Below, in pieces: positions 4,043 through 27,155 of a DNA stretch of 32,000 bases (position 1 is its first letter; each line of letters starts with the position of its first letter). Made by a program: the position numbers and the translations under genes. Origin of the DNA: Pyrobaculum aerophilum str. IM2 (GTDB lineage: Archaea > Thermoproteota > Thermoprotei > Thermoproteales > Thermoproteaceae); the NCBI RefSeq assembly GCF_000007225.1, contig NC_003364.1, positions 2,100,001 through 2,132,000 on the forward strand, written 5' to 3'. The notes beneath the pieces were generated by a model. The model saw only the letters and a program-made list of their open reading frames with translations, was not told where the DNA came from and ran no database searches.

Positions 4043-4107
4043 TAAGTCTGCAACGTTCATAAATATACCTCATGTTGTTTATAAGTGATGAGCCAGGCGA
4101 TTAGGAT
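4043..4107. repeat. direct repeat DR1, right copy (65 bp)
   Basis: Aligns with 1402-1469; retains a decoy TATA plus ATG (4060) followed by only 10 codons (MNVADLIKRR*). Confidence 0.85.
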
Positions 4108-6815: not shown

Positions 6816-7567
6816 TAACTGCAGTAACGTACATAAGAGTCTCCACGGAGGAGCAGGACCCGGAAAATCAACGGGTGTTTTTAGAGAGGTGGGCCGGGGA
6901 GAGGGGGATTTACATTGTTAAGCACTATGTCGACGTGGGGGTGTCCGGAGCGACGGAGCCTTGGGAGAGGCCGGCCTTTAGACAAATGGCCTCTGAGGTG
7001 GACAAGCTGGAGCCGAGGCCGCGGGTGTTGCTCGTGTACGAAATTTCGAGGCTAGTGCGCTCTTTCCAAGAGCTCTTTACTCTGCTAGACGTGGTGGAGA
7101 ACAGACTGGGTCTCGTGGTAGTCTCAGCCTCGGAGAGGGAGCAGGCCCTGCAGAACCTCGACGGAGTTTATAGACAGTTCTTACGGGCAGTTTTGGCCTT
7201 TGTGGCGACTATGGAGAGAGAGTTTATAAGACAGAGGACTAAGACGGCGCTTGAGAGGGCGCGCCTCCAGGGGAAGGTGTGGAACGTCGCCGAGAAGCGG
7301 CGGGATTTGACGCAGGCCGTAGTGGAGATGTACCTATCGGGGGCCTCGCTGAGGGAGACCGCCAGGGCCTTCGGCCTCTCACTGTATGAAGTAAGGCGAA
7401 TTCTGTCAAACGCGGGGGTGTACAGGCCAAGCCCCTACACGTGCCCCCGTTGCTTCTCAAAAATGAAAGTAGCTGAGAGGACGGCTAAAATCTCCAACGG
7501 GAAGTACACAGTGGTGGAGAGGCTCTATTGTTATAATTGCGGCTACGAGGAGATCAGGGAGGGATAA
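6812..7567 (+). CDS. serine recombinase (resolvase/invertase family) with C-terminal HTH and Zn ribbon
   Basis: N-terminal AVTYIRVSTEEQDPENQ (catalytic Ser motif), YEISRLVRS, HTH SLRETARAFGLSLYEVRRIL, CPRC...CYNCG. Confidence 0.8.
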   Translation: MITAVTYIRVSTEEQDPENQRVFLERWAGERGIYIVKHYVDVGVSGATEPWERPAFRQMASEVDKLEPRPRVLLVYEISRLVRSFQELFTLLDVVENRLGLVVVSASEREQALQNLDGVYRQFLRAVLAFVATMEREFIRQRTKTALERARLQGKVWNVAEKRRDLTQAVVEMYLSGASLRETARAFGLSLYEVRRILSNAGVYRPSPYTCPRCFSKMKVAERTAKISNGKYTVVERLYCYNCGYEEIREG

Positions 7568-13164: not shown

Positions 13165-13521
13165 TTGGGTGGCGCCATGGACGTTGTAAAAACTCTGAGG
13201 TATAAATTCGTGCGCTACTGTGTGAATAAAGCGTATGTGGATTTAAATCTAGAAGGCGTGCCCGCCGAAGTTGTAAACGTCTTAGACGACGTGGTAAATC
13301 AAATTAGAGACTTGGAGAGGCACATAGTTTCTTTTGAGTCTGCTGTTAGAGTTTTTAGGGCAGATTTGCCTGAGAAATTAAAGATATTAAAGGAGCGGGA
13401 TCCAGCATTAGCTAGGGCCTTTATAAAGAATTTAGTTAAATACTGCCTAGAGCTGGAGGAAGTGGCTGATTCAAAACTGAAAGATTATTTAGAGGAATTG
13501 TTAAGCAGTTTTAAAGACTAG
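13165..13521 (+). CDS. hypothetical helical protein, first gene of cluster
   Basis: 118 aa; 8-nt gap to the next ORF; no motif. Confidence 0.5.
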   Translation: MGGAMDVVKTLRYKFVRYCVNKAYVDLNLEGVPAEVVNVLDDVVNQIRDLERHIVSFESAVRVFRADLPEKLKILKERDPALARAFIKNLVKYCLELEEVADSKLKDYLEELLSSFKD

Positions 13522-13529
13522 AGAGATGA

Positions 13530-14735
13530 GTGAGAATTGTCTTAAACGCCCCTCCTGGCTTCGGCAAGTCGAGGCTAATTGCGAGATTGGCGTCGGGTAG
13601 AATATCTCTAGTGTTTGTAAGGAGCCATCTAGAGGGTCTGCAAATGGCCCAGTACGTCTCTGAGTTTGGAGGCGTGCCGGGGTTATTATTTGGGCGGAAG
13701 TCTCTGTGTCCTTTCGGGGCCGAGAACGCGGCGCAGTGTTTATGGCTTAGAGAGAGCGGGGCGTGCAAGGCGAAGTCCCGGAGGCCGCCCACATTAATTT
13801 TCGATATTGACGAGCTTTATAAAGCGGGGGTGTGTCCCTATGAGGCGCTACACGCCGAGGGCAGGGAGAAGAACGTAGTAATTCTGCCCATAGCCTATTT
13901 GTCAAAAGTCTCTAACATATCTGCAGTGGCTGATCTTTTTGAAAACGTAGAGTTCGTGGCGTTAGACGAGGCGCATAATTTACTCTCAGTGGTGGAGGTA
14001 AGCGACAGCGAGCTTTACTCTAAGAGATATTGCCAAGAAGAGGACGGCAGGCTTTGGTGTTTAGTACTGCCGCTAGCCGCCGAGGTGGTAAGGGGGGTGA
14101 GATTTATAATTGCGGCCAGCGCCTCTGTGGTTAGGTATTTCTCCGACTTTTTCACGCATTTTCTCAACGCCAAGTTTATAGAAATTAAAACCTTGCCGGG
14201 CGCGGAGAATTTAGAGGTTGAGCACATGCCGTTGAAAATCCGCTATACTACTCGTTTAAAAAAAGACTACGTAGAGGCGGTATTGGACAAGATAAGGGAG
14301 GTATATAAAGAATACAGGCGTGTAGTCGTCTACCTGCCTAATAAAGAACTCGCCAGTTATTACGCAAATAAACTATTAGACCTCCCAGTGTCAGACAAGC
14401 CGCTGGGCGATATAGATCACGTAATTGTCAGTTATTTCGGTTCTCCAATTTCTGAGGGAGTTAACTTAAACGTCAAGGCGGGGGTCTTAGTGGGATTCCC
14501 CATACCAAATGTCAAGAGCAAAGAGCTGTGGCTAAAAGTAAGGCTAATCCAGAGGCTGGGCTTTGACGGCTATAAATACGGAGTTCTATTCACCGCGGTA
14601 AATCACGTGGTACAAGCCGTGGGCAGGGTGTTAAGAGGCTTGGAAAGAGAGAGGAAGTACATCCTCCTTATAGACGACAGATTTGCCGAGTACAAGAGGC
14701 TCCTGCCTGAATATCTTTCAAAGGCGGTTAAGTAG
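13530..14735 (+). CDS. compact XPD/Rad3-like SF2 helicase with Fe-S cysteines
   Basis: Walker A APPGFGKS, DEAH box (LDEAHNL), motif VI QAVGRVLRG, four Cys C-x9-C-x8-C-x22-C between motifs I and II; only 401 aa. Confidence 0.7.
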   Translation: MRIVLNAPPGFGKSRLIARLASGRISLVFVRSHLEGLQMAQYVSEFGGVPGLLFGRKSLCPFGAENAAQCLWLRESGACKAKSRRPPTLIFDIDELYKAGVCPYEALHAEGREKNVVILPIAYLSKVSNISAVADLFENVEFVALDEAHNLLSVVEVSDSELYSKRYCQEEDGRLWCLVLPLAAEVVRGVRFIIAASASVVRYFSDFFTHFLNAKFIEIKTLPGAENLEVEHMPLKIRYTTRLKKDYVEAVLDKIREVYKEYRRVVVYLPNKELASYYANKLLDLPVSDKPLGDIDHVIVSYFGSPISEGVNLNVKAGVLVGFPIPNVKSKELWLKVRLIQRLGFDGYKYGVLFTAVNHVVQAVGRVLRGLERERKYILLIDDRFAEYKRLLPEYLSKAVK

Positions 14736-14756: not shown

Positions 14757-15638
14757 GTGTTAGAACTGGCTTTGTTATTGCTACTGCTGGCTTTTACGTT
14801 TAATGACGGCGTATTTATTGGAATTGGGAAAACAGGGCCTGTGGAAATACCGCTGGATAGGCATATAGTAATAACAGGCCCGACTAGAAGCGGCAAGACT
14901 AAACTCGCGAAGAAAATCGTGGCGAGGTCGGGGTTGCCGGCTCTTGTGCTTGATTGGCACGGCGAGTACGAAGGGCTATCAATAGATGCAAGAAAAATAA
15001 AAATTGACATTGAGAAATTTGATAAAAAATTACTAGTAGAGATTTTGGGCCTCTCTCTTAATCTAAACGAGCCAAGTATTTACTTCCTTTATAGGGCAAT
15101 ACGTAACCAAAAACTACGAGACATTAAAGACGTAGTTGCCGCGTTAGAGGACTTTTTAGTGGCCACGAGGAGCGAGGTGGAGATGAAGGCTGCAATTGCC
15201 AGAAGGCTTGAATACGTAATGGACGTGTTTGAAAAAGGCATTATACCGGTGGAGAAAATTTTTAAATATAAAAAGACTATTATTATTAATTTATCTAAAT
15301 TGAAATTATATGAAGAAAAAATATTAATATCACTATTTATATTATCATCTTTATATAATTACTTATTTGAGAAAGGGCCGTCTAAAAAAGTCGACAGGCT
15401 ACTCGTAGTAGACGAGGCGCAGAATATTTTAAAACGCGGCGATGTTGTGAAATACTTGGTTTTTGAAAGCGCCAAGTACGGCCTGAGATTAGTGCTTGTG
15501 AGTAACGAAATGCCCCCAGAGGATATACTAGTCCATGCAACTCTAGTGTTAACTCGCCCTCATTACGCATACAGTTTAAAAACTAAGAGGGCGGCGGTGA
15601 TCCGTGACAACACAATAAAAGAGTTATGGATAATATAG
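14757..15638 (+). CDS. mini HerA/DUF87-type P-loop ATPase
   Basis: Walker A GPTRSGKT, LDWHGEYEG (HerA-like D-HGEY), Walker B LLVVDEAQN; 293 aa. Confidence 0.7.
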   Translation: MLELALLLLLLAFTFNDGVFIGIGKTGPVEIPLDRHIVITGPTRSGKTKLAKKIVARSGLPALVLDWHGEYEGLSIDARKIKIDIEKFDKKLLVEILGLSLNLNEPSIYFLYRAIRNQKLRDIKDVVAALEDFLVATRSEVEMKAAIARRLEYVMDVFEKGIIPVEKIFKYKKTIIINLSKLKLYEEKILISLFILSSLYNYLFEKGPSKKVDRLLVVDEAQNILKRGDVVKYLVFESAKYGLRLVLVSNEMPPEDILVHATLVLTRPHYAYSLKTKRAAVIRDNTIKELWII

Positions 15639-15820
15639 AAAAAATATTGAGGGCTCTGGGTTTGAAAAAAGATGAAATTACTTCTTGTGATATCTATATT
15701 AACTATTTTATGCAATATTTAGCTAGTATTGAGAGGAAAATCGCTGAGTTAAAAAGCAAAGTTGATTACCTAGAGGAAAAATGCATTAAAAATGGAGAAG
15801 AAACCGATAACTCAGGCTAG
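15626..15820 (+). CDS. small coiled-coil protein; 3' end lies in DR2
   Basis: 64 aa; overlaps the upstream ORF by 13 nt; the C-terminal VDYLEEKCIKN is encoded by the repeat. Confidence 0.45.
   Translation: MDNIEKILRALGLKKDEITSCDIYINYFMQYLASIERKIAELKSKVDYLEEKCIKNGEETDNSG
15762..15810. repeat. direct repeat DR2, left copy (49 bp)
   Basis: 43/49 identical to 27107-27155 by hand alignment; the first 23 nt are perfect (TTGATTACCTAGAGGAAAAATGC). Confidence 0.8.
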
Positions 15821-15900
15821 TATAAAAAGGGAAAATCTCCGAGTTAACCTGTCGCGCCCTCCGTCATATCATGTCCCTGTAGTGTTGAATGGCTATATTG

Positions 15901-16004
15901 CCGTCCTCGAAAAATTTCTCAGAGGCTAAAAGCCAAGCTTTCCGACCTGGATAATTCAGGAAATAAAGCCGAAAAATTAGCGTTCAAGAATTCTTTCAGA
16001 ACGG
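15901..16004. repeat. ~105-bp dyad-symmetric module, copy C (most degenerate)
   Basis: CCGTCCTCGA-N5-TTCTCAGAG ... CCTGGATAATTCAGG ... TTCAAGAA-N5-TCAGAACGG; same architecture and spacing as copies A and B. Confidence 0.65.
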
Positions 16005-16033
16005 CATATCCGCAGGATCGAGCAGGAGTTAGG

Positions 16034-16046
16034 AAAAAAGGGGGGG
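16034..16046 (-). terminator. C7-T6 tract directly after the TnpB-like stop
   Basis: Minus strand reads CCCCCCCTTTTTT starting 2 nt after the TAA at 16048-16050. Confidence 0.3.
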
Positions 16047-16047
16047 T

Positions 16048-16950
16048 TTAAATTAATTCGGAGAACCGCCTCTGCGCCCACAGCGCCAACACTTTCTCCC
16101 TCGGCGCCTCAAAGCCGCACTGCTGACACCTCAGCTTCCTATCCGACAGCTCCCCCATTTCTATCCCACACCGGGGGCACACCGCGGAGTACAGCCTGTC
16201 CTCACGGTACGGCACTCCGTACCATGAGGCCAGCTCTCTAATCCGCCTCCTCAGCCTCTCCGCGTTGAGGCGGATTCCTCTGTCTGAGACCTGGCGGGGG
16301 TCTGGCACGCTTACCACAATCACCGCCTTGTTGCGCCTCGCCTCCATTACTAGCTTCTTCGCCGTTTCATCTTCAAACTGGCGCAAGATGTTTTTCACGC
16401 GTCTGCGGAGCGCCGCTACTCTTTCACAGTGGTCCTCCTCCCCGCTCGCACAGAGGGCCTCAAGGCGGGAGATTTCCCTCTGTATGCGGCCAATTTTCCC
16501 CAAGTCCGGCCTGTAGACGCCTTTTTGCAGTACGCGCTCCCCATCTACAGTCGCCCACACCACGCCGTTGTGTAGAGCGATGACATCAACTGCGGTTAGG
16601 CGGGTAGGCTGGTAGGGCTCCGTCTCTTTGGCGAATACCAGCGCCACGTTAAAGGTGAATAAGTCAGACCGCCCAGTGGGGCCCACCCAGGCGTAGGCCT
16701 CCTCCAGCCGGCCGCCCTCCTTCAGCCTCTGGAGTATCCCCCTCACTTCTGCCCTCCTCAGCCTTATTACAATTGCGCCTTCGCCCTGTCCAATTCTGAT
16801 CTCGCCCCCTTGGAGATCGACAGAGAACTGATCTCCGCGGAGTGCCACCCGCTTGTTGATACCCCCTTGCGCTCCCAGAAACTCCACCAGCTTCTCTGAC
16901 GGAATCTCCTCCACTTTTCTCCGTATAAGCACTGTTCTATACGCCATCAT
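16048..16950 (-). CDS. compact TnpB/IS605-OrfB-like protein with non-canonical RuvC residues
   Basis: LTAVDVIALHNG (RuvC-I-like Asp), helical RRRVKNILRQFEDETAKKLV, ELASWYGVPYREDRLYSAVCPRCG-x13-CQQCG Zn finger in the family-typical position; 300 aa. Confidence 0.6.
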   Translation of the reverse strand: MMAYRTVLIRRKVEEIPSEKLVEFLGAQGGINKRVALRGDQFSVDLQGGEIRIGQGEGAIVIRLRRAEVRGILQRLKEGGRLEEAYAWVGPTGRSDLFTFNVALVFAKETEPYQPTRLTAVDVIALHNGVVWATVDGERVLQKGVYRPDLGKIGRIQREISRLEALCASGEEDHCERVAALRRRVKNILRQFEDETAKKLVMEARRNKAVIVVSVPDPRQVSDRGIRLNAERLRRRIRELASWYGVPYREDRLYSAVCPRCGIEMGELSDRKLRCQQCGFEAPREKVLALWAQRRFSELI

Positions 16951-16998
16951 GACTCTTCCTCCGCACTCCCAATTTTGAACAATTTTTCACCGCATGCT

Positions 16999-17101
16999 TT
17001 CCTGAATCCGGTTCTGAGCGGCGGTTTTTGCGCCTTAGCGTCCTGAAAAATTCAGGAAACAGAGGCGGGAAAAACCGGCTCAGGAGGGGGCTCAGGAGAC
17101 G
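16999..17101. repeat. ~105-bp dyad-symmetric module, copy A
   Basis: TTCCTGAA-N5-TTCTGAG ... CCTGAAAAATTCAGG ... CTCAGGAG-N5-TCAGGAGACG; right arm overlaps the ATPase stop codon (17092-17094). Confidence 0.7.
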
Positions 17102-18582
17102 TCCTCTGGCCGGGCCAGCCGGATGAAGATCGGCGCCCTCCCGCCGAACCGGACAACGGCGTGGCGCTCCCCCGGTAGCGACTCGGTGGCCACCCTCTCC
17201 AGCACGGAGCGGTCTATCTGCACGGCGCGGGACACCCTCTCCAGCTGCTCCGGCGCTATCGCCAGCACGGCCTTGGTGTCCGAGTTGGCGATGATGGTGG
17301 AGAGCGGCCCGAACTCCTGGACGTCCTGGCTTATGGCCACGAGCCTGACCCCGAACTTCCTGAGGCCGCGCCACGCCAGCGCCAGCGCCTCTAAGTTGCG
17401 GAGCAGCAGGTGGGCCTCGTCTATGTAGATCTCCAGCTTCGGCCCGCAGGACGGCCTGGGGCACGCCCGCTTGGCCCACAGCGCGTATGCGAACAGCCAC
17501 GAGACGAGCCTCATGACGGAGGCGGGGCCCTCGTCCCCGTACGTGGTCACCGCCACCGCGCCAGACGTGGCGAGCCCCGCGGGCCTGGCCCGGGCCAGGG
17601 ACTTCAACCGGCCGTAGATGGAGTCGACGGCCATGGCGCTGAGGGGGTCCCGGATCCTCGCGAGCGCGCCGACCAGCCCGGCGAGGTCGGCGGAGCCCCC
17701 GGCCCTCTCCAGGGCGTTGAGGATCACCGTGTAGTGCACGTCGTGCACCGCCACGCCGGCGGCCCTCAGTATGTCCAGGAGGAGGTCGGCGTCTGAGGGG
17801 CCCTCCTCGCCGCTGTCGGCCGAGAATGCCATCTCCGGTATGTGTTTCCTGGCGTCGATCACGGCCGTGGCGACGTCGGCCCAGTGCCCGTGGGGATCTA
17901 TGGCCACCACTAGCCTCCCCAGCCGCCTGGCCTGTGCGGCCTGGGCCTTCGCCCACGTGGTCTTGCCAGATCCCGTCTTGCCGATCACCACGGCGTGGGG
18001 GCTCTCCAGCTGGTAGGGATCCATGCAGACCTCCCTCCCCCTGTCGTCCCAGCCCAGCCTGTACGCAGAGGGGCCGCACTGGAAGGGCAACAGCATGAAG
18101 GCATAGGGGGTGAACTCCGCGAGGTCGAAGGTCAGGGCGTCCACGGTGCTGGGCCTCCCCACGGTGAAGGCTAAGGGCCTCCCGTCCACCACCCCCGCAA
18201 CCGCGAAGGCCTCCTCCCTCAGGTGGACGATCCTGTGCCTCACCGCCGCCACCTCCTCGGCCCGCATCATGCGGACTCGGCTGAGGAGGACCGCCGCCAT
18301 GTGCTCCTGCCGGAGGGCCCGCTTCGTGATCCTCTGCAGGAAGCCCCTGTTGGGCGCCCAGGTCACCAGCGCCCTGCTGACCATCAGCTGGGAGACCTTC
18401 GCGATCGAGTGCACCTCCTCGGGGCGCAGGAGGGCGAAGAGGGAGTCGTTGGCCTCCAGGCCCCGCCCGGCGGCTGGCGTCCCCGCGTCCGACGCCAGGA
18501 GGAGGAGGTAGGCCAGGGCCCCGAGGACGGCGCCGGGGAGGGAGGCGGTGGCGGCGTGCACCTGGGATCGCCTGGCGGGCAT
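17092..18582 (-). CDS. HerA/VirB4-like (DUF87-type) ATPase with N-terminal hydrophobic anchor
   Basis: Walker A GKTGSGKT, AIDPHGHW, Walker B EIYIDEAHLL; N-terminal LPGAVLGALAYLLLLA; alternative start at Met67 (18384) forms a TGATG stop-start overlap with the upstream ORF. Confidence 0.8.
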   Translation of the reverse strand: MPARRSQVHAATASLPGAVLGALAYLLLLASDAGTPAAGRGLEANDSLFALLRPEEVHSIAKVSQLMVSRALVTWAPNRGFLQRITKRALRQEHMAAVLLSRVRMMRAEEVAAVRHRIVHLREEAFAVAGVVDGRPLAFTVGRPSTVDALTFDLAEFTPYAFMLLPFQCGPSAYRLGWDDRGREVCMDPYQLESPHAVVIGKTGSGKTTWAKAQAAQARRLGRLVVAIDPHGHWADVATAVIDARKHIPEMAFSADSGEEGPSDADLLLDILRAAGVAVHDVHYTVILNALERAGGSADLAGLVGALARIRDPLSAMAVDSIYGRLKSLARARPAGLATSGAVAVTTYGDEGPASVMRLVSWLFAYALWAKRACPRPSCGPKLEIYIDEAHLLLRNLEALALAWRGLRKFGVRLVAISQDVQEFGPLSTIIANSDTKAVLAIAPEQLERVSRAVQIDRSVLERVATESLPGERHAVVRFGGRAPIFIRLARPEDVS

Positions 18583-19985
18583 GGGGGCGGGGGCGGATCG
18601 TCCGTCACGTTCGGCGGGGGCGGCGGCGGCGGAGGCGGCCTCTGGATGGCGGGGCGGACGTCGTGGTAGGTCACGCCGCCAGGCACCGCGAGTCCCGCAT
18701 AACTTCTGCTACTCGATATAAACGCGACGTAGTCCACGCTGGCACTGGTTATGCTTTCTCTGTTGTGGTAGCCGAGGTTCTGCACTACGGTTCCCACGAT
18801 GTTGGTGCCCAGGATGTAGAACCGCTCGACCGGGGCCACCACAGTGCCGCCACTGGGGCTGTAGGACCAGTCATAGAGGGCGTTGAACCGCTCCACCTGG
18901 GCGCCGAAGCTGAGGTAGAAGTACCTGTAGCTATCGGGCCACACCGCGTAGGCGTTGGGCACCACCGAGTCGGGAACCTGTAGCGGGCCGACGGGCGTCT
19001 CAATGGTGATGGGCGTGGAGCCGAAGGAGATCTCGGCCGCTGGCACGAGGGTGATGTCCTGAGAGACGTAAGCGAGACCTTGCTCTATGGTCTCCCGGCC
19101 AGCCGCCAGCCAGACGGTGGGCCAGCTGTTGGCCACAATGCCGATCCACCTGAAGAACGCCCTGGCTATGTCCACGTCAGAACGGAGTGGGCTGACAGCA
19201 CTCCCCGGGTTGGCGAGCTCCACCCCCTCAGTTCCGGGGACGACCGTCCCGCTCTGCCCCATGAACGTCAGGTTGTACTTGGTGCTGAGTCTCTCCTTGG
19301 CTATGCCACCGAGCGGGACGTACCAGCGACCGTCAGCGCCGCCATTGCGGCTCACTGTCACGCTCCCGACGAGGGCCTCCGTAGAGCCCTGTGGCGTGGC
19401 CACCACGTACGCCACGGCGAAGCCGTAGCACGTATCGCTATGCTTCTTCCACACGTGCCCTACAACGACGAGATCGCCAGCTGGCCACCAGGCGCCTACG
19501 TCCTCTGCCACTACTTCAACCAAGTAGCTGTTTGCCCACGACGCCCTCCCGCCGCCAGCCCTCTGCAGGTGCTCTGGCGTGAGGTATTCATCAATCCTGG
19601 TGGCGTTCTGCGGGACGCAGGTCTCCGGGTCGTACCCCCTGTAGACGCGCCACTCGCTTCCCACCCTGGCAAGGCTGTACAGGCCGTACCTCACCGTGGG
19701 CACCGTGTTCTTGGGGGCCCCCACGGCCATGACCACCCACTGTGGCGGGAGGACGCGGGCCTTCATGTCAAACCTGAAGGGTATGCCGATGGAGGACAGT
19801 CCCAGGCCCTGAACGCTGTCTGGCGCGCCGTACCAGGACTCCGCCCTGTTGCCCGCAGTCCTCCTGAACTCCGACTGCTCGAAGGCGGCCAGGAGGCCCG
19901 CCGGCCCGGCCCTCCCCCAGGCGATCCAGGCGGCCGGGCTACCCCTTACCGCGTACCAGACGAAGTGGAAGTACTCCTCCCTCAT
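18384..19985 (-). CDS. large beta-rich hypothetical protein with C-terminal poly-proline tract
   Basis: 533 aa; N-x-S/T sequons; PPPPPPPPPNVTDDPPPPPCPP; no signal peptide of its own; in frame with the upstream ORF across a TAG. Confidence 0.6.
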   Translation of the reverse strand: MREEYFHFVWYAVRGSPAAWIAWGRAGPAGLLAAFEQSEFRRTAGNRAESWYGAPDSVQGLGLSSIGIPFRFDMKARVLPPQWVVMAVGAPKNTVPTVRYGLYSLARVGSEWRVYRGYDPETCVPQNATRIDEYLTPEHLQRAGGGRASWANSYLVEVVAEDVGAWWPAGDLVVVGHVWKKHSDTCYGFAVAYVVATPQGSTEALVGSVTVSRNGGADGRWYVPLGGIAKERLSTKYNLTFMGQSGTVVPGTEGVELANPGSAVSPLRSDVDIARAFFRWIGIVANSWPTVWLAAGRETIEQGLAYVSQDITLVPAAEISFGSTPITIETPVGPLQVPDSVVPNAYAVWPDSYRYFYLSFGAQVERFNALYDWSYSPSGGTVVAPVERFYILGTNIVGTVVQNLGYHNRESITSASVDYVAFISSSRSYAGLAVPGGVTYHDVRPAIQRPPPPPPPPPNVTDDPPPPPCPPGDPRCTPPPPPSPAPSSGPWPTSSSWRRTRGRQPPGGAWRPTTPSSPSCAPRRCTRSRRSPS

Positions 19986-20033
19986 CAGAATCCCGTCGGT
20001 GGTGCCGTCTGTGTTGGTGTTGTACTGTCCCGG

Positions 20034-20825
20034 CTACAGGCCGCTCATCTGGAGGAACCTGAGACTGCCGCCAGCACCCTCCAGGTACTCGTGGGTCACC
20101 GTCATCTCGTAGCTACCGAACTGGTCGACAGACGGCACGTTCTCCCAGTACTGGGCGCCGAAGTCGCCCGGCTCCACCGTCTCCTTCCCGTACCACGGCA
20201 CCGTCAGAGTGCACGCGTACTCCCCGCTGTCCGCGGTGTCGAGGATCAGCAGGTCGCAGGACCTCTCGCCAGACTGCCAGCCCTCGCCCCTCACGTCCTT
20301 GGCCGTGGTGACCGTGACGGTGGTGCTACCGACGAGTTCACCGCTCGTCTTGTTGTAGTACTCGCACCTTATCACGTACTCGGTCACTGTGGCCGTCCAC
20401 TGTCTCGGCGCGGAGAACCGCACGGACGCCTGCACCCGGTACTCGGTCTTCAGCGGGTTGGGATCGCCCCACTGGGCCGCGTAGGGCTCCGAGCCGCGGG
20501 CCTCCTGCGCTTTATCAGTCCTCGGGAAGCCGGTCTCCACCCTGTAGCTGAACACCAGCCCCATCTCGAAGTCGAAGGCGTTGCGGGTGACAGTCCGCGA
20601 CGTCTGAGACGCCACGTACGTCCTCAGCGATATTTCCGGATCGGCGGGAGAGGGACAGAAGCCTTCAATAACTTTAGGATCGTTCATATCTTTGCGCTCT
20701 CCACTTATTGTTATACTATCCGGATCTACTTTGAAGAATCCGCCTTTGTCGCTGTTGTCGCCACCGTACGCCAGCAACGCCAGTAGCGCCAGGACTGCCA
20801 GCACCGCTGGCCAGGGGTTCCGCAT
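20034..20825 (-). CDS. secreted hypothetical protein
   Basis: 263 aa; signal-like MRNPWPAVLAVLALLALLAYGG; TATA-like TAAAGTTTT about 15-25 nt upstream of the ATG. Confidence 0.6.
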   Translation of the reverse strand: MRNPWPAVLAVLALLALLAYGGDNSDKGGFFKVDPDSITISGERKDMNDPKVIEGFCPSPADPEISLRTYVASQTSRTVTRNAFDFEMGLVFSYRVETGFPRTDKAQEARGSEPYAAQWGDPNPLKTEYRVQASVRFSAPRQWTATVTEYVIRCEYYNKTSGELVGSTTVTVTTAKDVRGEGWQSGERSCDLLILDTADSGEYACTLTVPWYGKETVEPGDFGAQYWENVPSVDQFGSYEMTVTHEYLEGAGGSLRFLQMSGL

Positions 20826-20883
20826 GAGGGGGAGGGGGAAAAACTTTAGTGTTGATTGTGGGGTGGGAGGAGGGGTGGCAACG

Positions 20884-21045
20884 CTATCTGCGCCTGGCGA
20901 GGCGCCCCGCCGCCAGGCCCGCGGCTAGGGCGGCCGCGGCCAGCGCGGCCGCCGCCGTCCAGTCCACCTCCCTCACCCTCACCGTCTCGGTGGCCGTGGC
21001 GACGCTGGTGACGGTCTCAGTGACTGTGGCGGTCTCCGTGGCGGT
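20884..21045 (-). other. in-frame continuation after TAG: Thr-rich stalk plus C-terminal TM anchor
   Basis: My translation: TATETATVTETVTSVATATETVRVREVDWTAAAALAAAALAAGLAAGRLARRR*, in the same frame as ORF 21046-21861. Confidence 0.5.
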
Positions 21046-21861
21046 CTACCTCACGGTGACTGTTGTGGTGGCCACGGCCGTTGCCGTCACGGTTCTGGTC
21101 ACTGTGGTGGTGACGTTGACGTAGACGGGCCTCACCTCCTCCCTTATGGCGACGCCCCTCGGGCCGGGGTAGCTGAAGTTCGGCCACTCAACGTCGGCGC
21201 TGTAGATGAGCTCGGCCCTCCGGACGCCGTCGCCGAAGAGGGTCGCGAAGGTGGAGCCATTTTTGAGTCTCACTAAATACGCGCATTCGTTCCACCACAG
21301 GGCGTAGTCGTAGTCTCCAGTAGTGCCATGTATTTTTCTCATATACTCCCACCTCTCCATAAACGAGCTACCCGTCACGATACAGGGAGTCCTCTTCACC
21401 ACCTCCCCGGCCCTGTAAACGTCCAGTCTCCTCCCGTCAAAGGCGGCAATGCCGACTCTGGTGCCGTTTTTGTAGACGTAGAGGACGACGTCCCTGCCCC
21501 GCGTGGAGTTGAGGAGATCGGCGCGGCTCACCCTGGCGCCCGGGAACAGCTCTTGCAGCTTCTGCAGGATCCTGTGCACGAGCAACGCCGCCGCCACCTC
21601 CCTCTCGAGCATCACGCCACTTGTGGCGAAGAGGGGCCCGTGCACCGGCCAGCTGCCCGCCAGGTAGGCCGCCAGGGGCTCCACAAAGGCGTCTGGAGGC
21701 CGCACCGGTAGCCACATCTGCACCTTGGGCTCGGTCGGTAGTGAATCCCACCAGTAGCCCGGCCTGAAGTTGCCCTCCCCGTCCACCACCAGGTGGTATG
21801 TGCCGTAGTCCAGCTCGGCCCTGTCCCACAGCGACACGGGCCAGAACCAGGTGGCGCTCAC
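21046..21861 (-). CDS. hypothetical surface protein segment (GTG start, ends at in-frame TAG)
   Basis: 271 aa; several N-x-S/T sequons; C-terminal T/V-rich repeat VNVTTTVTRTVTATAVATTTVTVR; no signal peptide of its own. Confidence 0.55.
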   Translation of the reverse strand: MSATWFWPVSLWDRAELDYGTYHLVVDGEGNFRPGYWWDSLPTEPKVQMWLPVRPPDAFVEPLAAYLAGSWPVHGPLFATSGVMLEREVAAALLVHRILQKLQELFPGARVSRADLLNSTRGRDVVLYVYKNGTRVGIAAFDGRRLDVYRAGEVVKRTPCIVTGSSFMERWEYMRKIHGTTGDYDYALWWNECAYLVRLKNGSTFATLFGDGVRRAELIYSADVEWPNFSYPGPRGVAIREEVRPVYVNVTTTVTRTVTATAVATTTVTVR

Positions 21862-21969
21862 GACGCACGAGATCCCCTCTACGCAGAACGGCCGGGCGCC
21901 GCTGGCCGGGCTGGTCGTGTAGAGTCCGGTCTTCCAGGAGGTGAGGGCGCCGTGGACGACCCTGGCCTG

Positions 21970-22704
21970 TCACTCGTAGCTGGTGCTGCCGTTGCCCGGC
22001 ATGACGAACAGGTAGTACAGCACGTAGTCGGCCTCCAGGGACACGGAGAAGTAGTCGGTGTAGGCCACCACGGCGCGTAGCGTGCCGTTGGCCCCCAGCC
22101 ATATGAGGGCCAGGCGGCCCGGTCTCTTGAAGCGGAAGGCGAAGGTGGCGTAGCCGTAGTGGAGCCTCTGGGTGCCGATCACTGTCACCGAGCCGAGGAA
22201 TACCTGCCTGACGTCGTGCCAGCTGACGCAGGCCTCGGGCTCCGGCTGGGCGGTCAGCGGCCTGTCCCAGTCCGCGGGGTAGCCGACCAGAACCACCTGG
22301 GCCCTCTTGCAGGCGAAGAGGGATATCGGGAAGTCCAGACTGCCGTAGTAGTAGTGGACGACGCCCGGATCCGTGAACCACGTGACGTTCACGAAGCCGA
22401 TGCGCGCGGAGCCCCGCTCGAAGGGCGGGCTCTCCCCCAGCCTGAGGAGCCTGCCAAGGTAGCCGCTGACGGGCGGCCTTCCCACCCAGAAGAGGTAGAC
22501 GGGCTCTGAGGCGTTGAGAACCAGCCGGTCTCCGGGGACGACCGCGGCCGTGAAGTTGACCCAGCCGCCTGGCGTGTACAGGGGGCCCTCGGACACGTAC
22601 ACCAGGAGCCGGTAGTCCCAGTACTCCAGCTCCAGCCCCAGCGCGGTTGCGGCCAGCAGTAGCGCCACCAGGGGGACTGCCCTCACCATGGGGAACGGCC
22701 CCAA
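21970..22704 (-). CDS. secreted hypothetical protein (probable true start ATG at 22689)
   Basis: Signal-like MVRAVPLVALLLAATALG from the ATG at 22689; the TATA-like box sits 23 nt upstream of that ATG but abuts the TTG at 22704. Confidence 0.65.
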   Translation of the reverse strand: MGPFPMVRAVPLVALLLAATALGLELEYWDYRLLVYVSEGPLYTPGGWVNFTAAVVPGDRLVLNASEPVYLFWVGRPPVSGYLGRLLRLGESPPFERGSARIGFVNVTWFTDPGVVHYYYGSLDFPISLFACKRAQVVLVGYPADWDRPLTAQPEPEACVSWHDVRQVFLGSVTVIGTQRLHYGYATFAFRFKRPGRLALIWLGANGTLRAVVAYTDYFSVSLEADYVLYYLFVMPGNGSTSYE

Positions 22705-22705
22705 G

Positions 22706-22718
22706 CTATAATTTAAAG
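22706..22718 (-). promoter_or_regulatory. TATA-like box (CTTTAAATTATAG on minus strand)
   Basis: Position relative to the ATG at 22689 fits a leaderless transcript. Confidence 0.45.
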
Positions 22719-22728
22719 ATTTAGCACG

Positions 22729-22835
22729 CCGTCCTGAGATGTCTCCTGAGTCGCCAGTTTTCCAGCGGACAGTTCCTGAAAAATTCAGGAACTCCCGCCG
22801 AATTTTTCGTCGATTCAGGAACTAACTCAGGACGG
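22729..22835. repeat. ~105-bp dyad-symmetric module, copy B (best preserved)
   Basis: Left arm CCGTCCTGAGATGTCTCCTGAGTC and right arm GATTCAGGAACTAACTCAGGACGG are reverse complements at 19/24; each lies 22 nt from the central GTTCCTGAA-AAA-TTCAGGAAC. Confidence 0.8.
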
Positions 22836-22853
22836 CGGGAGGGGGTAGGGGGA

Positions 22854-23009
22854 TTATGTCGACACGAGTAGCGCCACCGGCTCTCCCTCTCTGTCGGTCA
22901 CCAAAATCGCCACCTCACCGTTCTTCTTGTACTCGGCGACTGTGTCTAAGGGCGCCAGCGCAAAGCACCTGTCGGCGGTTTCTATCAAAATCTTCCAGAG
23001 GCGTACCAC
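22854..23009 (-). CDS. possible small ORF or gene fragment (CBS-like pattern)
   Basis: Frame open 23069-22854 with no ATG; first GTG at 23009 gives 51 aa ending ...LDTVAEYKKNGEVAILVTDREGEPVALLVST*; below the ORF-track size cutoff. Confidence 0.2.
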   Translation of the reverse strand: MVRLWKILIETADRCFALAPLDTVAEYKKNGEVAILVTDREGEPVALLVST

Positions 23010-23332
23010 CGTCCACTGGGCGTCTTCTGGGCCTTCACACAGCCTTATCTTTACCAGCCTGGCGTTGCGCTAGTGAATCAATATCTTAATTCGCACTGGG
23101 GCGCCCGTGGCCATGCTTCGAGTTAATAGGCCGAGGTGGTACGTAGACGGCTACTACGTCGAGAGGGACGGCCCCCGCCCCGTCGCGGCTGTAGCAAAAA
23201 GCGTTGCGGCCACATGGCGCGCCCTCTTGGATCCTTCGTCCATCGCCATGTACTCTACCATGGGCGGGCACATGTCGACAGAGCCCCCTTTAGTTGTTTT
23301 TAAACCCCCAGTCATACTTATAATAGTTATAC

Positions 23333-23773
23333 GTGTACGTGGTCTACCTCCTCTACGCCGAGCTCGGGGGGAGGGTCGTGCGCTACGTCGGCTCCGGGAA
23401 GTGGCCGGGCCGGCTGAGGAGCCACGTAAGGGGGCACTCCTCCCTGGCCAAGCGCGGGGGGAGGCCGCTCTTCGCCGTGGTGTTAGCGTTTACTGAGGAT
23501 CGGGAGACGGCCTACCGCATGGAGGCCTATTTCCAGCGCCTTCTGGGGCACGAGACGGGCCGCCGTGTCCGCAAGAGGCCCCTCGCCGCCAGGTTGCCGA
23601 GGAGGTTCAGGCCAGTGAGATTCGGCGGCCTCTTGGTCTTCGTCCCCGACGGGGAGGGGGCAATCCCCGCGCGGCGGGGGATCAGCCCTCCAATGGCCGA
23701 AAGCCCGCCACCCGCAGGCCAGGGAGCCACCACAAGCAAGGAGCCAGGCCCCGGTGGCCCGGGACAGGCCTAG
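23333..23773 (+). CDS. GIY-YIG domain protein with Arg/Pro-rich tail
   Basis: N-terminus YVVYLLYAELGGRVVRYVGSGKWPGRLRSHVRGH ... ETAYRMEAYFQRL fits the GIY-x10-YVG...R..H...E pattern; A/T box TTTTTTAAA ~30 nt upstream of the GTG. Confidence 0.55.
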   Translation: MYVVYLLYAELGGRVVRYVGSGKWPGRLRSHVRGHSSLAKRGGRPLFAVVLAFTEDRETAYRMEAYFQRLLGHETGRRVRKRPLAARLPRRFRPVRFGGLLVFVPDGEGAIPARRGISPPMAESPPPAGQGATTSKEPGPGGPGQA

Positions 23774-23992
23774 TGGGCCTCTGTGGCCGTGGTAGCCACC
23801 GCGGCCAGGCGGACGGGCCTTGCACGGCCTGACCACAGGCCCGGAGGGGGTGAACTCGACGAACTCTATGTGGGGCCAGGCGGAGTACATCACCACGCGG
23901 CCGCCGGACTTCATGCGGGACACCCACGGCCTCACCTGCCCAGAGGCCTCGTAGACGTGGACCACTTGCCACCTGACCCTCGCCACCGCCAC
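23483..23992 (-). CDS. doubtful ORF antisense to the GIY-YIG tail
   Basis: GTG start; only the first ~60 aa look protein-like; lies in GC-rich DNA where long spurious ORFs are frequent. Confidence 0.2.
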   Translation of the reverse strand: MAVARVRWQVVHVYEASGQVRPWVSRMKSGGRVVMYSAWPHIEFVEFTPSGPVVRPCKARPPGRGGYHGHRGPLGLSRATGAWLLACGGSLACGWRAFGHWRADPPPRGDCPLPVGDEDQEAAESHWPEPPRQPGGEGPLADTAARLVPQKALEIGLHAVGRLPILSKR

Positions 23993-24130
23993 ATTCTCTT
24001 AACGTGGCAACAACGCTTTTTGCCTCAACTGCAGGCGTGTCGCCTGCCCCTCGGAAAGAGATTCAGGGCGGTACATATGTCGATATGGCATACTTTAATC
24101 AAAATTTCTGGATGTCGCGAAAACTAGCTC

Positions 24131-25225
24131 ATGAAGGTAGCAGAGGAGGCTTTAAAGTACAGGTCTGAAATTAAGAGACTGTTTGAGGAGGCGGAAATGG
24201 CAATAGAGCAGGGCTCAAAGCCGTGGAGCGACTTGAGGAGAGTTGTGACTTACATGAACAGCAGGCACAATAGGGATTGGCTAAGGTCTGCACACGTAGC
24301 CGTCGCCTGGATCCTACTCGAGGCGGGGCTGAGGGAGCTCGGCGACGTGAGGGACAGAGCGCTATCTGCTCTTAAAGAGATAGCGGAGAGACTGGCAAAG
24401 GGGGAGGAGGCAGAAGTGCCAGTGAAAGAGATATCGGAATTTGTGAGGAGGGCGCACGACGTGGCGCACCGCCTCGAGTTGATATTCGAGGACATCACGA
24501 GAAACGCCGAGAGGTATGGTAGAACTAAAGAGGAGGCCGAGACGATAAGGAGGACTTTCGCCGTAACCGAAGTGGCCAGGGAGCTGGCCGTCGCCACAGT
24601 GAGGAAGCTCAACAAGCTCAGCGAAGCGACGCTCGCCGACAAAGTTGTTGCATTTTTCTACAGCCTAGCTGAGGGCACGGCTTGGAGCCGTATAGTACTG
24701 AACGCCCTGAAGAGGGGAGAGGTATACGGGGCACTGGCCAGATCGCCAACAACGGCGTATACCAAATACGGTGGCGAGCGGAAAAAGACAAGGGGTAAAA
24801 GAGAGAGGCTAAGCGCCATCGTCTCCCGCCTCGCTCTCTGGCTCTCTGAAAGGGGCGTGGACAGGGCCACGATGATACGTGAGGGCGATACGGTGAAGGT
24901 CGTAGTAAATGGCGAGACGGTGGCCGAAGTCGAGACTAAGACTATCAAGACTGGGGGGAGCATTATTTTCTATGCGCAGGGCAGGTGGGTAGAGGAAGAG
25001 GGAAAAACAGCCGCAAAGCTGATAGCGAAGATAAAGCCTGCGAAGGCAGAGGACTACGAGCTAAGGGCGCTGTTGGCCACAGACGGTAATTATACCGCAG
25101 AGGGCAAGGTCATTGCTGGCACCACCTCAGTGCTACAGGCTGTGATCTACAAGCGGTTTGGGATGGAGGTCTCACACACGGGGAAGGGCGACTTGACCAG
25201 GTACGGCCTAAAGCCCATACTTTAG
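24131..25225 (+). CDS. helical hypothetical protein (possibly paREP2a-like)
   Basis: 364 aa, Glu/Arg/Lys-rich helical N-terminal part; C-terminal LRALLATDGNYTAEGKV motif; family name is from memory of P. aerophilum annotation and is unverified. Confidence 0.55.
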   Translation: MKVAEEALKYRSEIKRLFEEAEMAIEQGSKPWSDLRRVVTYMNSRHNRDWLRSAHVAVAWILLEAGLRELGDVRDRALSALKEIAERLAKGEEAEVPVKEISEFVRRAHDVAHRLELIFEDITRNAERYGRTKEEAETIRRTFAVTEVARELAVATVRKLNKLSEATLADKVVAFFYSLAEGTAWSRIVLNALKRGEVYGALARSPTTAYTKYGGERKKTRGKRERLSAIVSRLALWLSERGVDRATMIREGDTVKVVVNGETVAEVETKTIKTGGSIIFYAQGRWVEEEGKTAAKLIAKIKPAKAEDYELRALLATDGNYTAEGKVIAGTTSVLQAVIYKRFGMEVSHTGKGDLTRYGLKPIL

Positions 25226-25231
25226 GCTTGG

Positions 25232-27118
25232 TTGTCGACGCAAAAAGGCGGTGAAGAGGTGATCGAGATAGTTAGGCATGATTTAGAGGAGGGGCTAAGG
25301 GCCTTGCTGAGCAACGCTGAGCTGAGGGAGGAGCTTAGGGAAAAGGCGTTAAGACTCCTTGACGAGATGAAAATCTCAGTTCAAGGCGCAGACAAGAGTG
25401 AAAAGGGTAGAGAGAGGGTAGAGGACACAAGGAATAAGATAAAGGAGCGTATAGAGAAGTTCTTAACCGAGTTGAGGCTTGGAGAGAACAGTTCCGTCTG
25501 TCTTGTCAACTGTCAATTCGGCGAGCCCGTGCTGACGTATAAGCACGAGCCGTACGCCCGCATAATTGCGCCGTTAGTACATTACATCGCCTCAAACGCG
25601 CCGGAGGAGGAGGTCATGAGATTCCTAGCATATGCTGTACTTTTCGACGGAAGCATAGAACACGACAGAGTATCCCTCATGCTGGGCAATTTCCACGTAA
25701 AGGAGGCGTCAAAACGTCTCCCGCTTGATATGTACGACAAAATCGCTCTGTATATAATCCTCGCCGCGAAATACGGCGTGGGTATCAGGACAATTTTCGT
25801 CGGGGAGTATGAGACAATATTGTACTTTGACAGGAAGTATGTTGCAAAAATGTTCTCCCTTGTGTGGGGAGATCTCACAACCCTGTGGAGATTAGGCAGA
25901 ACGCTGGTATCACGCGCCGATCACATTTTCAAGAAGCTTGAAAACATTAGGATGTATGTTGAAGAGTTTGCAAACAGGCTGAAAATTGTCTGCATTCTAA
26001 AGAGTTTCTCAAACACAATCCCCTATGTAACGTTGTTGTTCTGGGAGGACAGCTGGCGGGAATTTGCACGTATATACATTAAATGGTGTCGGAATAAGCT
26101 GTGCGCTTACTTTAGGGGCGCCAAGGAAAAGGCAAAGCGCGCGGCTTCTGTGCTTAGCGCACTGGGCGCCACAGTGATAGTAAAGAAGTATGACGGGGAG
26201 TGGCGCGTCGCCCTTAAGGCGGACTCCATTACTGCCGTCCGCCGGACAGAATGGCTCGACGCAGTCCGCGCCCTCGTGGAGGAACTACACAGGAGGGGCA
26301 TAATAAGCGGGCGACAAAGGAGGCGATTGCTGAGGGAGATCGACGCCGGACCCAACGTGGTAGAGATGGCGGGGGTAGAATTCACCGTTAGAACAAAGGG
26401 CAGGCAGATCATAATAAAGCGCGAATCACTGTTGGCGGAGGTCATAAATTCGACAGTAGAGACACTCAAATCTGCCGGTCTCGAGGAGGGCGCCCACTTC
26501 ATTGCGAAAAGGCCTGATGGCAGTAGCTTGGGCTACGTGTACATAAGTGTGCCGACCGGGCTGTGGCAACTGGAGGAGTTAAGGAGACAGGGTATAGACT
26601 GGGCCGACAGAGCGCTAAAGCGCCTGGAGGAGATTGCAAAGGCCAGAGGCTTCTACGACGTGCTACAAAAGCACTTAAGATTGGCCAGGGAAGCGGAGAC
26701 CGTTAATCCGCGGGGACTGGTAGTAGAGGATCCTGGGGCGGGCGTCAGGGCCGAAATTAGAGACGTGAGGGTGGAGTGGACTGGCCGGAGGCCGAGAGTC
26801 GTGATCGAATACGAGGCGGGCGGACAGATCAAGTCGTTCTCCTTTATCTGGGGGCTGAAGACGCGGAGGGCAATTGTGGCAACTGTGAAACTAAACGCTG
26901 AAAGGGCCCTACTCTTGGCCGCCCTGACTGGCGACGGGAGGCTGAAGGGGAAGAGGGGGGCTTTACAGCTCCACGCCAAGCACTTGCTCGCCCTGACCAA
27001 GTACAAGGGCGTGGGTTTGTCCCCCGTTTTTTCCCTCCCGGTTTCACGGCTCTTTACAGATATCCTCCCGTGGCTGGTTCAGTGGCGGGGATGTGCTATT
27101 TGGGGATTGATTACCTAG
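25232..27118 (+). CDS. large hypothetical protein with LAGLIDADG-like motifs (possibly paREP2b-like)
   Basis: 628 aa; FLAYAVLFDGSIEHDRVSLML (~aa 131) and LLAALTGDGRLKGKRGALQL (~aa 561); 6-nt gap to the upstream ORF; stop lies inside DR2. Confidence 0.55.
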   Translation: MSTQKGGEEVIEIVRHDLEEGLRALLSNAELREELREKALRLLDEMKISVQGADKSEKGRERVEDTRNKIKERIEKFLTELRLGENSSVCLVNCQFGEPVLTYKHEPYARIIAPLVHYIASNAPEEEVMRFLAYAVLFDGSIEHDRVSLMLGNFHVKEASKRLPLDMYDKIALYIILAAKYGVGIRTIFVGEYETILYFDRKYVAKMFSLVWGDLTTLWRLGRTLVSRADHIFKKLENIRMYVEEFANRLKIVCILKSFSNTIPYVTLLFWEDSWREFARIYIKWCRNKLCAYFRGAKEKAKRAASVLSALGATVIVKKYDGEWRVALKADSITAVRRTEWLDAVRALVEELHRRGIISGRQRRRLLREIDAGPNVVEMAGVEFTVRTKGRQIIIKRESLLAEVINSTVETLKSAGLEEGAHFIAKRPDGSSLGYVYISVPTGLWQLEELRRQGIDWADRALKRLEEIAKARGFYDVLQKHLRLAREAETVNPRGLVVEDPGAGVRAEIRDVRVEWTGRRPRVVIEYEAGGQIKSFSFIWGLKTRRAIVATVKLNAERALLLAALTGDGRLKGKRGALQLHAKHLLALTKYKGVGLSPVFSLPVSRLFTDILPWLVQWRGCAIWGLIT

Positions 27119-27155
27119 AGGAAAAATGCTTTAAAAATGACAAAGAAACAAATAA
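27107..27155. repeat. direct repeat DR2, right copy (49 bp)
   Basis: 43/49 identical to 15762-15810; contains the stop of ORF 25232-27118 and the ATG of ORF 27137-27547. Confidence 0.8.

Follow-up and report, generated by a model that had tools for sequence, protein, structure and literature searches.

The omega repressor of the bacterial plasmid pSM19035, which has roles in both control and partition, binds 7-bp heptads that lie contiguously. The res site of Tn3/gamma-delta is about 114 bp long and holds three dimer subsites with the crossover subsite at one end; Sin resH and FRT with a third repeat are further multi-site recombination sites. In Sulfolobus conjugative plasmids of the pNOB8/pING family, single intergenic recombination motifs of about 16 bp mark the borders of variable regions. 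Archaeal Lrp/FFRP regulators recognize boxes of the form abcdeWWWe'd'c'b'a', the optimal site of FL11 being CCGAAA[AAT/ATT]TTTCGG (PMC2715240). Lrp-type complexes contact boxes that recur on a single helix face at intervals of two or three turns, and three dimers or an octamer take up about 100 bp of wrapped DNA (PMC2995911). We analyzed a 32,000-nucleotide stretch of the genome of Pyrobaculum aerophilum str. IM2 (NC_003364.1, positions 2,100,001 to 2,132,000 of the forward strand), hereafter called the window, which contains three copies (C, A and B, in order of position) of a dyad-symmetric module of about 105 bp. With slightly less than even confidence, we read this module as a promoter-upstream, protein-wrapped control module of Pyrobaculum mobile elements, whose repetition would also make it a recombination hotspot.

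Reading and aligning the sequence bore out every sequence statement of the initial annotation, which describes three copies with one common architecture. Module B (22725–22840; no strand was assigned to any of the three) is the best-preserved copy, with TCCTGA hexamers starting at 22732, 22744 and 22774, TCAGGA hexamers starting at 22785, 22815 and 22827, and the core CCTGAAAAATTCAGG at 22775–22789. Its left part reads CCGTCCTGAG-ATGTC-TCCTGAG, followed by a 21-nt spacer and then GTTCCTGAA-AAA-TTCAGGAAC, and its right part continues after the core with a spacer and TTCAGGA-ACTAAC-TCAGGACGG. The outer 10-mers (22729–22738 and 22826–22835) are exact inverted repeats, as had been described, and the single-strand DNA fold z-scores of this copy are −8.5 and −7.9. 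Module A (16993–17105) has the same layout as B, with the core at 17042–17056 and hexamers starting at 17000, 17012 (a degenerate TTCTGA), 17041, 17052, 17080 and 17092; the Ser and stop codons (TCC TGA) of an ATPase gene lie within its last hexamer. Module C (15897–16008), located at the left edge of a GC-rich island and downstream of a truncated tnpB-like gene, is recognizable though decayed, with the core CCTGGATAATTCAGG, arms TCCTCG/TTCTCA and TTCAAGA/TTCAGAA, and a fold z-score of merely −2.2 to −2.5. The centre of the core has the same orientation in A, B and C, again in agreement with the earlier description.

Two checks suggested in the initial annotation, a comparison with shuffled sequence and a search for copies elsewhere, both came out in favor of the module. 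When up to three mismatches were allowed, the core 15-mer had seven matches against 0.63 expected, a number reached by none of 100 shuffles, and 12 of the 19 TCCTGA/TCAGGA hexamers in the window fall within the approximately 340 nt of the modules. A profile hidden Markov model (HMM), built from 14 module copies found outside the window, scored B at 90.6 bits (E = 1e-26), A at 72.3 bits (E = 5e-21) and C at 19.8 bits (E = 8e-5), with no match in the window beyond these three.

The modules are real members of a repeat family that is apparently undescribed. HMM and pattern searches yielded approximately 25 further copies in the loci L121, L132–L144 and L146, which derive from a P. arsenaticum-like genome, P. 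aerophilum-like metagenome-assembled genomes (MAGs) and metagenome contigs. In the P. arsenaticum-like genome (L121), one full module lies where two convergent gene calls end, and a pair of TCCTGAA hexamers coincides with the stop codon of the ATPase gene, which in the window also lies within a module. A strict pattern, consisting of the core and two arm hexamers, was scanned against 241 million metagenome records and matched 12 contigs, several of them with two or three modules, and no viral contig; fetching homologs of the tnpB-like protein added L144 with two modules and L146 with one. In the MAG contig L125, the window locus is present almost base for base. The 17-mer core by itself proved too short a pattern for genome contigs, giving more than 120 chance single matches in unrelated organisms. 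Identity between whole modules is 60–85%, while single halves reach 100%; many near-identical dispersed copies were not seen, the three window copies all lying in one island and the strict-pattern copies in 12 metagenome loci. The initial annotation knew of no described family matching the module, and our searches agree: Rfam 15 gave no match at E ≤ 1 for window positions 15000–24500, phage and plasmid collections gave none with either module DNA or the ATPase protein, and no description of the module was found in the literature on Pyrobaculum repeats, paREP12, TnpB or the Ted system. An RF03933 match on L144 was discarded as a chance match to a plant miRNA precursor (29 bits versus a gathering score of 100).

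The architecture of the module is rigid. Across 18 full copies, TCCTGA hexamers start at −50, −38 and −8 relative to the core centre, within 1 nt, and TCAGGA hexamers at +3, +33 and +45, mostly within 1 nt (one copy is off by 2). Centre-to-centre distances between hexamers are 12, 30, 11, 30 and 12 bp, the outer hexamers being separated from those of the core by 42 and 53 bp, or 4.0 and 5.05 helical turns, and A/T content has maxima at −42, −22, 0, +22 and +42, one per two helical turns. The core is a 15-bp palindrome, CCTGAA[WWW]TTCAGG, and the six TCCTGAR sites face inward, three on each side. Two subfamilies were distinguished: the first, which includes window A and B, L133, L137 and L146, combines TCCTGAG sites with the core CCTGAAAAATTCAGG, and the second combines TCCTGAAATTTnTCCTGAA arms with the core CCTGAAAATTTCAGG and commonly has extra abutting hexamers. 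Spacers and linkers vary, whereas the sites do not. This combination of invariant sites, rigid spacing and free spacers argues for recognition of double-stranded DNA by a protein, not for a selected RNA or single-stranded DNA hairpin.

The modules also occupy a fixed position relative to genes. In at least 12 cases, the last hexamer is followed after 8–15 nt by an A/T box and, 20–30 nt further, by a start codon, which places the TATA-like box within the 37–54 nt between the outer hexamer and the start codon. Boxes next to modules take the forms TTCAAAATT, TTTAAATTATA, CTTAAATA and AATCAAAATATAG. Between module A and the start codon of the tnpB-like gene (16950) lies the box GTTCAAAATTG (16971–16980, minus strand), and an TTCAAAATT-type box stands at the same distance in L132, L133, L137, L140, L143, L144 and L146; at all of these loci, as for window A, module and box lead to tnpB. 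Window B leads to the first secreted-protein gene: its box TTTAAATTATA (22707–22717, minus strand) starts 14 nt past the last hexamer and approximately 20–30 nt ahead of ATG 22689, a start that agrees with a 239-aa gene call in L125. In L138 and L142 the module leads to a pilin-like operon ending in a ParA-like gene, in L139 a module is likewise upstream of a box and start codon, and in L137 and L144 a second box and start stand on the opposite side of one and the same module. A further A/T box follows the second module of L140 and L144, between tnpB and a structured element. Many modules begin 0–19 nt past the stop codon of the preceding gene, that is, at the seams between transcription units; the module of L137 is located between two divergent genes with no 3' end nearby. 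The candidate genes served by the modules are tnpB (paREP12), a candidate omegaRNA, the pilin-like operon and the secreted-protein operon of the window. The gene context given in the initial annotation was correct as to positions relative to genes, and the "glycoprotein" genes it named encode Pfam-less proteins with signal-peptide-like N-termini.

An STIV_B116-like gene (PF08960/DUF1874) was observed directly downstream of a putative module-associated promoter by tnpB in L144 (3253–3615, minus strand) and L143 (12738–13100, minus strand), the two copies being 98% identical. DUF1874 is the family that includes the viral anti-CRISPR ring nuclease AcrIII-1, and the gene may be anti-defence cargo rather than a regulator.

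Because the modules end just upstream of TATA-like boxes, we read them as transcription control modules. From archaeal promoter geometry, the boxes would work as promoters. We suggest that a multimeric, sequence-specific protein, formed of interacting dimers, would bind the six sites and wrap the double-stranded platform of about 105 bp, whose end 8–15 bp upstream of the TATA-like box would let it serve as an operator, upstream activating site or insulator. Module B would then control the secreted-protein operon, module A would do so for the tnpB-like gene, perhaps also protecting it from transcription that runs on out of the ATPase gene, and C would be the decaying downstream copy of a broken tnpB unit; the exchange of gene blocks at repeated modules acting as recombination hotspots would be a side effect. 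Among the four options of the initial annotation, a multi-operator array for a regulator is the best supported, by the rigid spacing, the phased A/T tracts, the position upstream of TATA-like boxes and the existence of analogous arrays.

As to the binding protein, the closest likeness is to the Lrp/FFRP arrays of the Ss-LrpB control region, FL11 and Ptr2. The module core CCTGAA[AAT/ATT]TTCAGG has the box form and, at 15 bp, the length of the FL11 site, and its inner part, CTGAA[AAA/AAT/ATT]TTCAG, has five of five dyad pairs in all full copies examined (17 scored). In the module, the A/T centres two turns apart and the extent of 105 bp would be compatible with several sites on one face and about 100 bp of wrapped DNA, and both kinds of array are located upstream of a TATA or TATA-like box. 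In the modules, however, the central box alone is palindromic, the four arm sites being direct-repeat half-boxes; the spacer elements, tried as full Lrp-type boxes, gave only 2–4 of 5 dyad pairs, and the non-central elements are half-boxes or weak dyads. A further difference is that the modules are carried by mobile elements and repeated at many promoters, whereas Lrp arrays stand at one host operon. An Lrp/FFRP-like regulator is the leading candidate binder solely because the core fits the box format, and we treat it as a lead, not a finding.

Several observations weigh against a control module. The core is its sole full palindromic box, with direct repeats in the arms and weak dyads in the spacers, and no Lrp/AsnC gene was present among the window ORFs (open reading frames) scanned. 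The small proteins adjoining modules gave no DNA-binding domain and no binding protein was found; Pfam scans of approximately 50 neighboring ORFs returned only a weak helix-turn-helix (HTH) match (109 aa) and a ribbon-helix-helix (RHH) match (66 aa), both in L121 and away from any TCCTGA site. Both the TATA-like boxes and the leaderless starts are predictions from sequence. No obvious gene start lies beside some intact modules, such as that of L121 with its convergent gene calls, nor beside C. Finally, the mosaic halves and the junction positions described below fit a role in recombination equally well.

The omega system offers a second comparison. Like the heptads, the module sites are short, occur in direct and inverted orientation and are repeated upstream of several promoters of one mobile element, and the module relatives L138 and L127 encode a ParA-like ATPase. 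The module sites, however, are 11, 12 and 30 bp apart within a strict overall dyad, whereas the heptads are contiguous, and the sole RHH-type protein seen, the 66-aa protein of L121, adjoins neither a module nor a TCCTGA site.

Arrays with other motifs were found in equivalent positions in related elements. L127 has two arrays (1988–2065 and 19060–19130), each upstream of a gene and each composed of 3+3 ACAGGGAT sites, 14 nt apart, around ACAGGGATAATTATCCCTGT. In L126, eight TTCATGA-type sites (1563–1690) lie directly upstream of a gene for an HTH protein, in L147 a CCTGA variant array (334–465) lies upstream of tnpB, and in L129 CACCTGC palindromes (5225–5280 and 13484–13551) are found near its tnpB copies. 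Operators that co-evolve with regulators particular to each element would be expected to show such a pattern, in which the motif changes from element to element and the position does not. Relative to known multi-site operator arrays, the novelty lies in a strict six-site dyad accompanying the promoters of mobile elements, those of tnpB and a candidate guide RNA among them.

The association with tnpB is close. The window gene bracketed by A and C (16048–16950, minus strand) is a deleted copy of the paREP12/InsQ-TnpB family with the Pfam domain Cas12f1-like_TNB; it encodes 300 aa, compared with 380–410 aa in intact copies, and is 44% identical to the homolog P0038 with 66 gap positions. We collected 346 homologs, a large Pyrobaculum/Thermoproteus family that carries the source names paREP12 or InsQ/TnpB. 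An upstream module is present at nine of the ten tnpB loci examined, and modules bracket tnpB in the window (A/C), L140 and L144. The intact unit of L144, and in reverse that of L140, consists of a module, a TATA-like box, tnpB, approximately 185 nt of TTCAAC repeats, a second module, approximately 70 nt and a GC-rich RNA-like element of about 200 nt, so that conserved sequence runs approximately 260 nt past the downstream module. The RNA-like element was located in L144 (5505–5712, plus strand), L140 (5995–6205, minus strand), L145 (5465–5673, plus strand) and L137 (3775–3907, minus strand); it ends in ...GAGAGTAGAAAGGGGG, where similarity between copies stops. It folds into several stems, nine base pairs being compensated across three sequences, and no reading frame is conserved within it. 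It had no Rfam match and is absent from the window. We consider it a good candidate for the omegaRNA and for the right end of this TnpB element. The window arrangement of A, tnpB and C is a broken unit, with deletions in the gene, no RNA element and a decaying C.

The downstream repeats of tnpB, GTTCAAC/GTTGAAC in five to seven copies approximately 25–30 nt apart directly after the gene, were observed in L144 (5153–5340), L140 (6368–6484), L146 (1500–1680) and L133 (13790–13900), with a single copy at window position ~15878–15884. Their TTCAA(A/C)AT motif also forms the TATA-like box upstream of tnpB. These repeats could be transposase binding sites or part of a transcript.

The initial annotation had also considered IS200/IS605-type element ends. 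In favor of this, A and C bracket tnpB, intact units elsewhere carry modules, and the modules resemble such ends, as well as PATE and REPIN sequences, in flanking a TnpB gene and in being palindromic and intergenic. The modules are not, however, terminal in every copy. In L145, on the P. oguniense chromosome, tnpB and the RNA-like element occur entirely without modules; in L137, no module separates the two; L146 has neither a downstream module nor the RNA-like element, a PaREP1 gene following its repeats; and B and many other copies occur without tnpB. As sister units lack them, modules are frequent companions of tnpB promoters and not obligatory element ends. They are, in addition, much longer than the subterminal hairpins of the IS200/IS605 family, the copy number is low, no TnpA (Y1 HUH transposase) was seen in the module loci examined, and no RAYT accompanies them.

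The family is mosaic. When modules are split at the centre, the halves sort into a small number of distinct types, and most modules combine halves of unlike type, the own partner ranking approximately 10th to 30th in similarity. The right half of the L121 module is identical to the left half of that in L138 (56/56 nt), though partner halves and contexts differ, and the sequences of L143 and L144 coincide from the inner module arm on. In L140 and L144, the tnpB interiors are 97–100% identical while the 5' regions and modules differ. Modules A and B bracket the ATPase operon in the window; this operon is absent in L140, where a single module joins tnpB directly to a homolog of the 51-aa ORF found next to module B. 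Partial modules occur at junctions in L137 (5789–5867, the core and one arm), L121 (12209–12243, an arm only, at the ATPase stop) and L136 (5–45), and breakpoints fall at varied places, namely the core edge, the spacer or after the inner arm.

A site-specific recombination site, though unlikely in our judgment, is the leading alternative. The central palindrome would be the crossover site and the arms and bent spacers accessory sites, at which a recombinase would insert, delete or invert gene blocks. Beyond the block borders, the partial modules of L137 and L121 and the recombining halves of L121/L138 and L143/L144, it would fit the presence of tnpB in either orientation relative to the neighboring repeat region (L133 versus L137). 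The six half-sites within about 105 bp, as an inverted pair with direct-repeat pairs separated by bendable A/T spacers, recall the Tn3/Sin res and FRT sites. In res, however, the crossover subsite is at one end, whereas the module has its palindrome in the centre and is symmetric as a whole. No integrase or recombinase gene adjoins any module locus examined, the breakpoints do not coincide at one crossover point, the orientation of the core relative to genes is not constant (L133 versus L137), and the fixed distance to TATA-like boxes is left unexplained. Given the varied breakpoints and the lack of an adjacent recombinase, homologous recombination between the 100-bp repeats is the simplest account of exchange and accounts for the mosaics. 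The motifs of the pNOB8/pING plasmids are likewise short, conserved and recurrent in the intergenic DNA of archaeal conjugative elements, but the modules are six-site dyad arrays that differ from them in sequence, size and architecture.

Three related candidates were rejected. A small serine recombinase of the resolvase/invertase type (6812–7567, plus strand), with an N-terminal catalytic domain, a C-terminal HTH and a zinc ribbon, was considered as a partner of the modules; it is 9 kb away, has no tnpB partner and has no homolog in other module loci. Modules as attachment (att) sites of the island were discarded, since C is at the border because the broken tnpB unit lies there, and intact units continue past the module. 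Integron attC sites do not fit either: in their R''-L''...L'-R' layout each pair forms an inverted core site, and a cassette holds one promoterless gene, whereas the arm pairs of modules are direct repeats and the blocks between modules hold one to six genes in both orientations.

We regard as quite unlikely the idea that the module is a non-autonomous element similar to miniature inverted-repeat transposable elements (MITEs) or REPINs, with two inverted ends of about 50 bp that hold transposase sites and carry outward promoters into intergenic DNA. The dyad structure and the size of about 105 bp are classic for MITEs, and the identical or near-identical half-modules in unrelated contexts, which speak for the MITE/PATE mobility put forward initially, agree with it. 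A module stands between tnpB and the candidate omegaRNA in L140 and L144 and not in L137, L145 and L146, a conserved promoter-like extension travels with one half-type (the left side of L144, and L140), and the right end of the tnpB unit closes with the same 9 nt as the module edge ...GAAAGGGGG. However, no target-site duplication was visible at any copy inspected, the empty and filled sites between tnpB and the candidate omegaRNA are too diverged to define insertion borders, and no matching transposase was found. The copy number given above is low, whole modules are not near-identical, and at the ATPase stop the module keeps its syntenic place in elements with ATPases just 76% identical. Assemblies that often break inside modules would suit such an element: the ends of contigs such as L134, L135, L136, L142 and L143 commonly fall within the module core, and two contigs have inverted modules at either end. 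These breaks are probably an assembler artefact at the 29-nt perfect palindrome.

A hairpin, acting as a 3' untranslated region stem-loop, a bidirectional terminator or insulator, or a single-stranded substrate for an IS200/IS605-type transposase at the ends of tnpB elements, appears very unlikely, even though intact copies fold better than shuffles (z −4.4 to −8.5, as expected of any dyad), T4–T6 runs occur on both strands of each module, the A/C, L140 and L144 pairs bracket tnpB, and modules begin just past the stop codons of the ATPase gene, the 51-aa ORF and the 69-aa gene of L140. The long RNA hairpins suggested at first have folding in their favor and lack covariation support: the RNAalifold consensus pairs the three invariant hexamer helices only, with a covariation term of +0.15, the linkers and spacers form no conserved helices and are often non-complementary, and spacer A/T tracts occur in either orientation, unlike the T-runs of terminators. 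The divergent genes at the L137 module, the module-free tnpB unit of L145, the structured right end beyond the module, and the lack of a TnpA or a significant Rfam match likewise speak against it.

All three modules are contained in a GC-rich island (16000–24000, no strand), with 58–69% GC against approximately 50% around it, which by its gene content is a remnant of a mobile element with genes like those of type IV secretion systems (T4SS). The gene that ends inside module A encodes a HerA/VirB4-like ATPase (TrwB_AAD_bind, DUF87; 17092–18582, minus strand) of 496 aa, compared with approximately 700–740 aa (~740 aa) in homologs, which were found in Pyrobaculum-type contigs only; the homolog of L121 is the one 76% identical to it. 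Within 17092–19985 (minus strand), the ATPase ORF overlaps an upstream 533-aa ORF by approximately 200 nt, and this overlap together with the short length suggests a frameshift or truncation in the window's copy. From the short ATPase and the short tnpB-like gene, the element copy in the window looks degraded. Neighborhoods of ATPase homologs contain a T2SSE-type ATPase, a ParA-like ATPase, pilin-like small membrane proteins and very large proteins, and resemble archaeal conjugative or Ted-like T4SS loci (PMC9905601). Downstream of module B lies the operon of four Pfam-less proteins, mostly signal-peptide-bearing (18384–22704, minus strand). On its other side, the 51-aa ORF (22854–23009, minus strand) ends 19 nt from B, and its 69-aa homolog in L140 ends 17 nt from a module; only two homologs exist for this protein, and its AlphaFold model (pLDDT 75) had no PDB fold match below E = 1.

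Further along, the ORF at 25232–27118 encodes a PaRep2b protein (E = 1.8e-143). A 49-nt direct repeat, 88% identical, has one copy (15762–15810) that forms the 3' end of a 64-aa ORF immediately left of module C and another (27107–27155) that forms the 3' end of the PaRep2b gene; this 64-aa ORF may be a fragment of a PaRep2b 3' end. The two copies bracket the GC-rich island together with a 364-aa gene and the PaRep2b gene, which places the island within a repeat region of the paREP2 type. A SWIM-zinc-finger-like protein that is intact in L140 (8190–8540) is represented in the window by halves on opposite strands (23107–23496, plus; 23483–23992, minus), an arrangement that suggests an inversion or insertion. 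A GIY-YIG nuclease gene (23333–23773) lies between the two halves and has a 62% identical homolog in L135, a contig bounded by modules. At the other end of the window, direct repeats of approximately 65 nt, 97% identical and 2.6 kb apart (1402–1469 and 4043–4107), flank a stretch of lower GC (43–51%) with two Pfam-less ORFs (2079–2543 and 2893–3480), and could be attachment-site-like borders of another small inserted element.

The structure of the module is striking and well supported, and it is its function that we infer. A bolder and distinctly unlikely possibility is that hyperthermophilic archaea have a cassette-shuffling system with the modules as its exchange sites or, alternatively, that one regulator switches a whole mobilome regulon including tnpB and its guide RNA. 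If cassette shuffling were true, a portable promoter-plus-recombination site would let elements swap tnpB/omegaRNA units, T4SS-like operons and anti-CRISPR-like genes, comparable in function to integrons and built on a six-site dyad plus a recombinase. The module family also accounts for the breaks and rearrangements that assemblies of these elements show at the modules, and such elements would be systematically fragmented in short-read assemblies.

The regulation of the widespread RNA-guided TnpB nucleases in their native hosts is poorly understood. To our knowledge, no dedicated operator array upstream of tnpB or omegaRNA has been reported, and none was found in the literature searched. If the modules are indeed control modules, one DNA-binding factor would govern genes as different as those for a TnpB nuclease and for secreted proteins, along with the nuclease's candidate guide RNA, conjugation-like pilus genes and a gene that resembles anti-CRISPR genes. 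As a concrete DNA bait, module B or the consensus may serve in the search for the regulator, or for a recombinase, in archaea that are not yet genetically manipulable.

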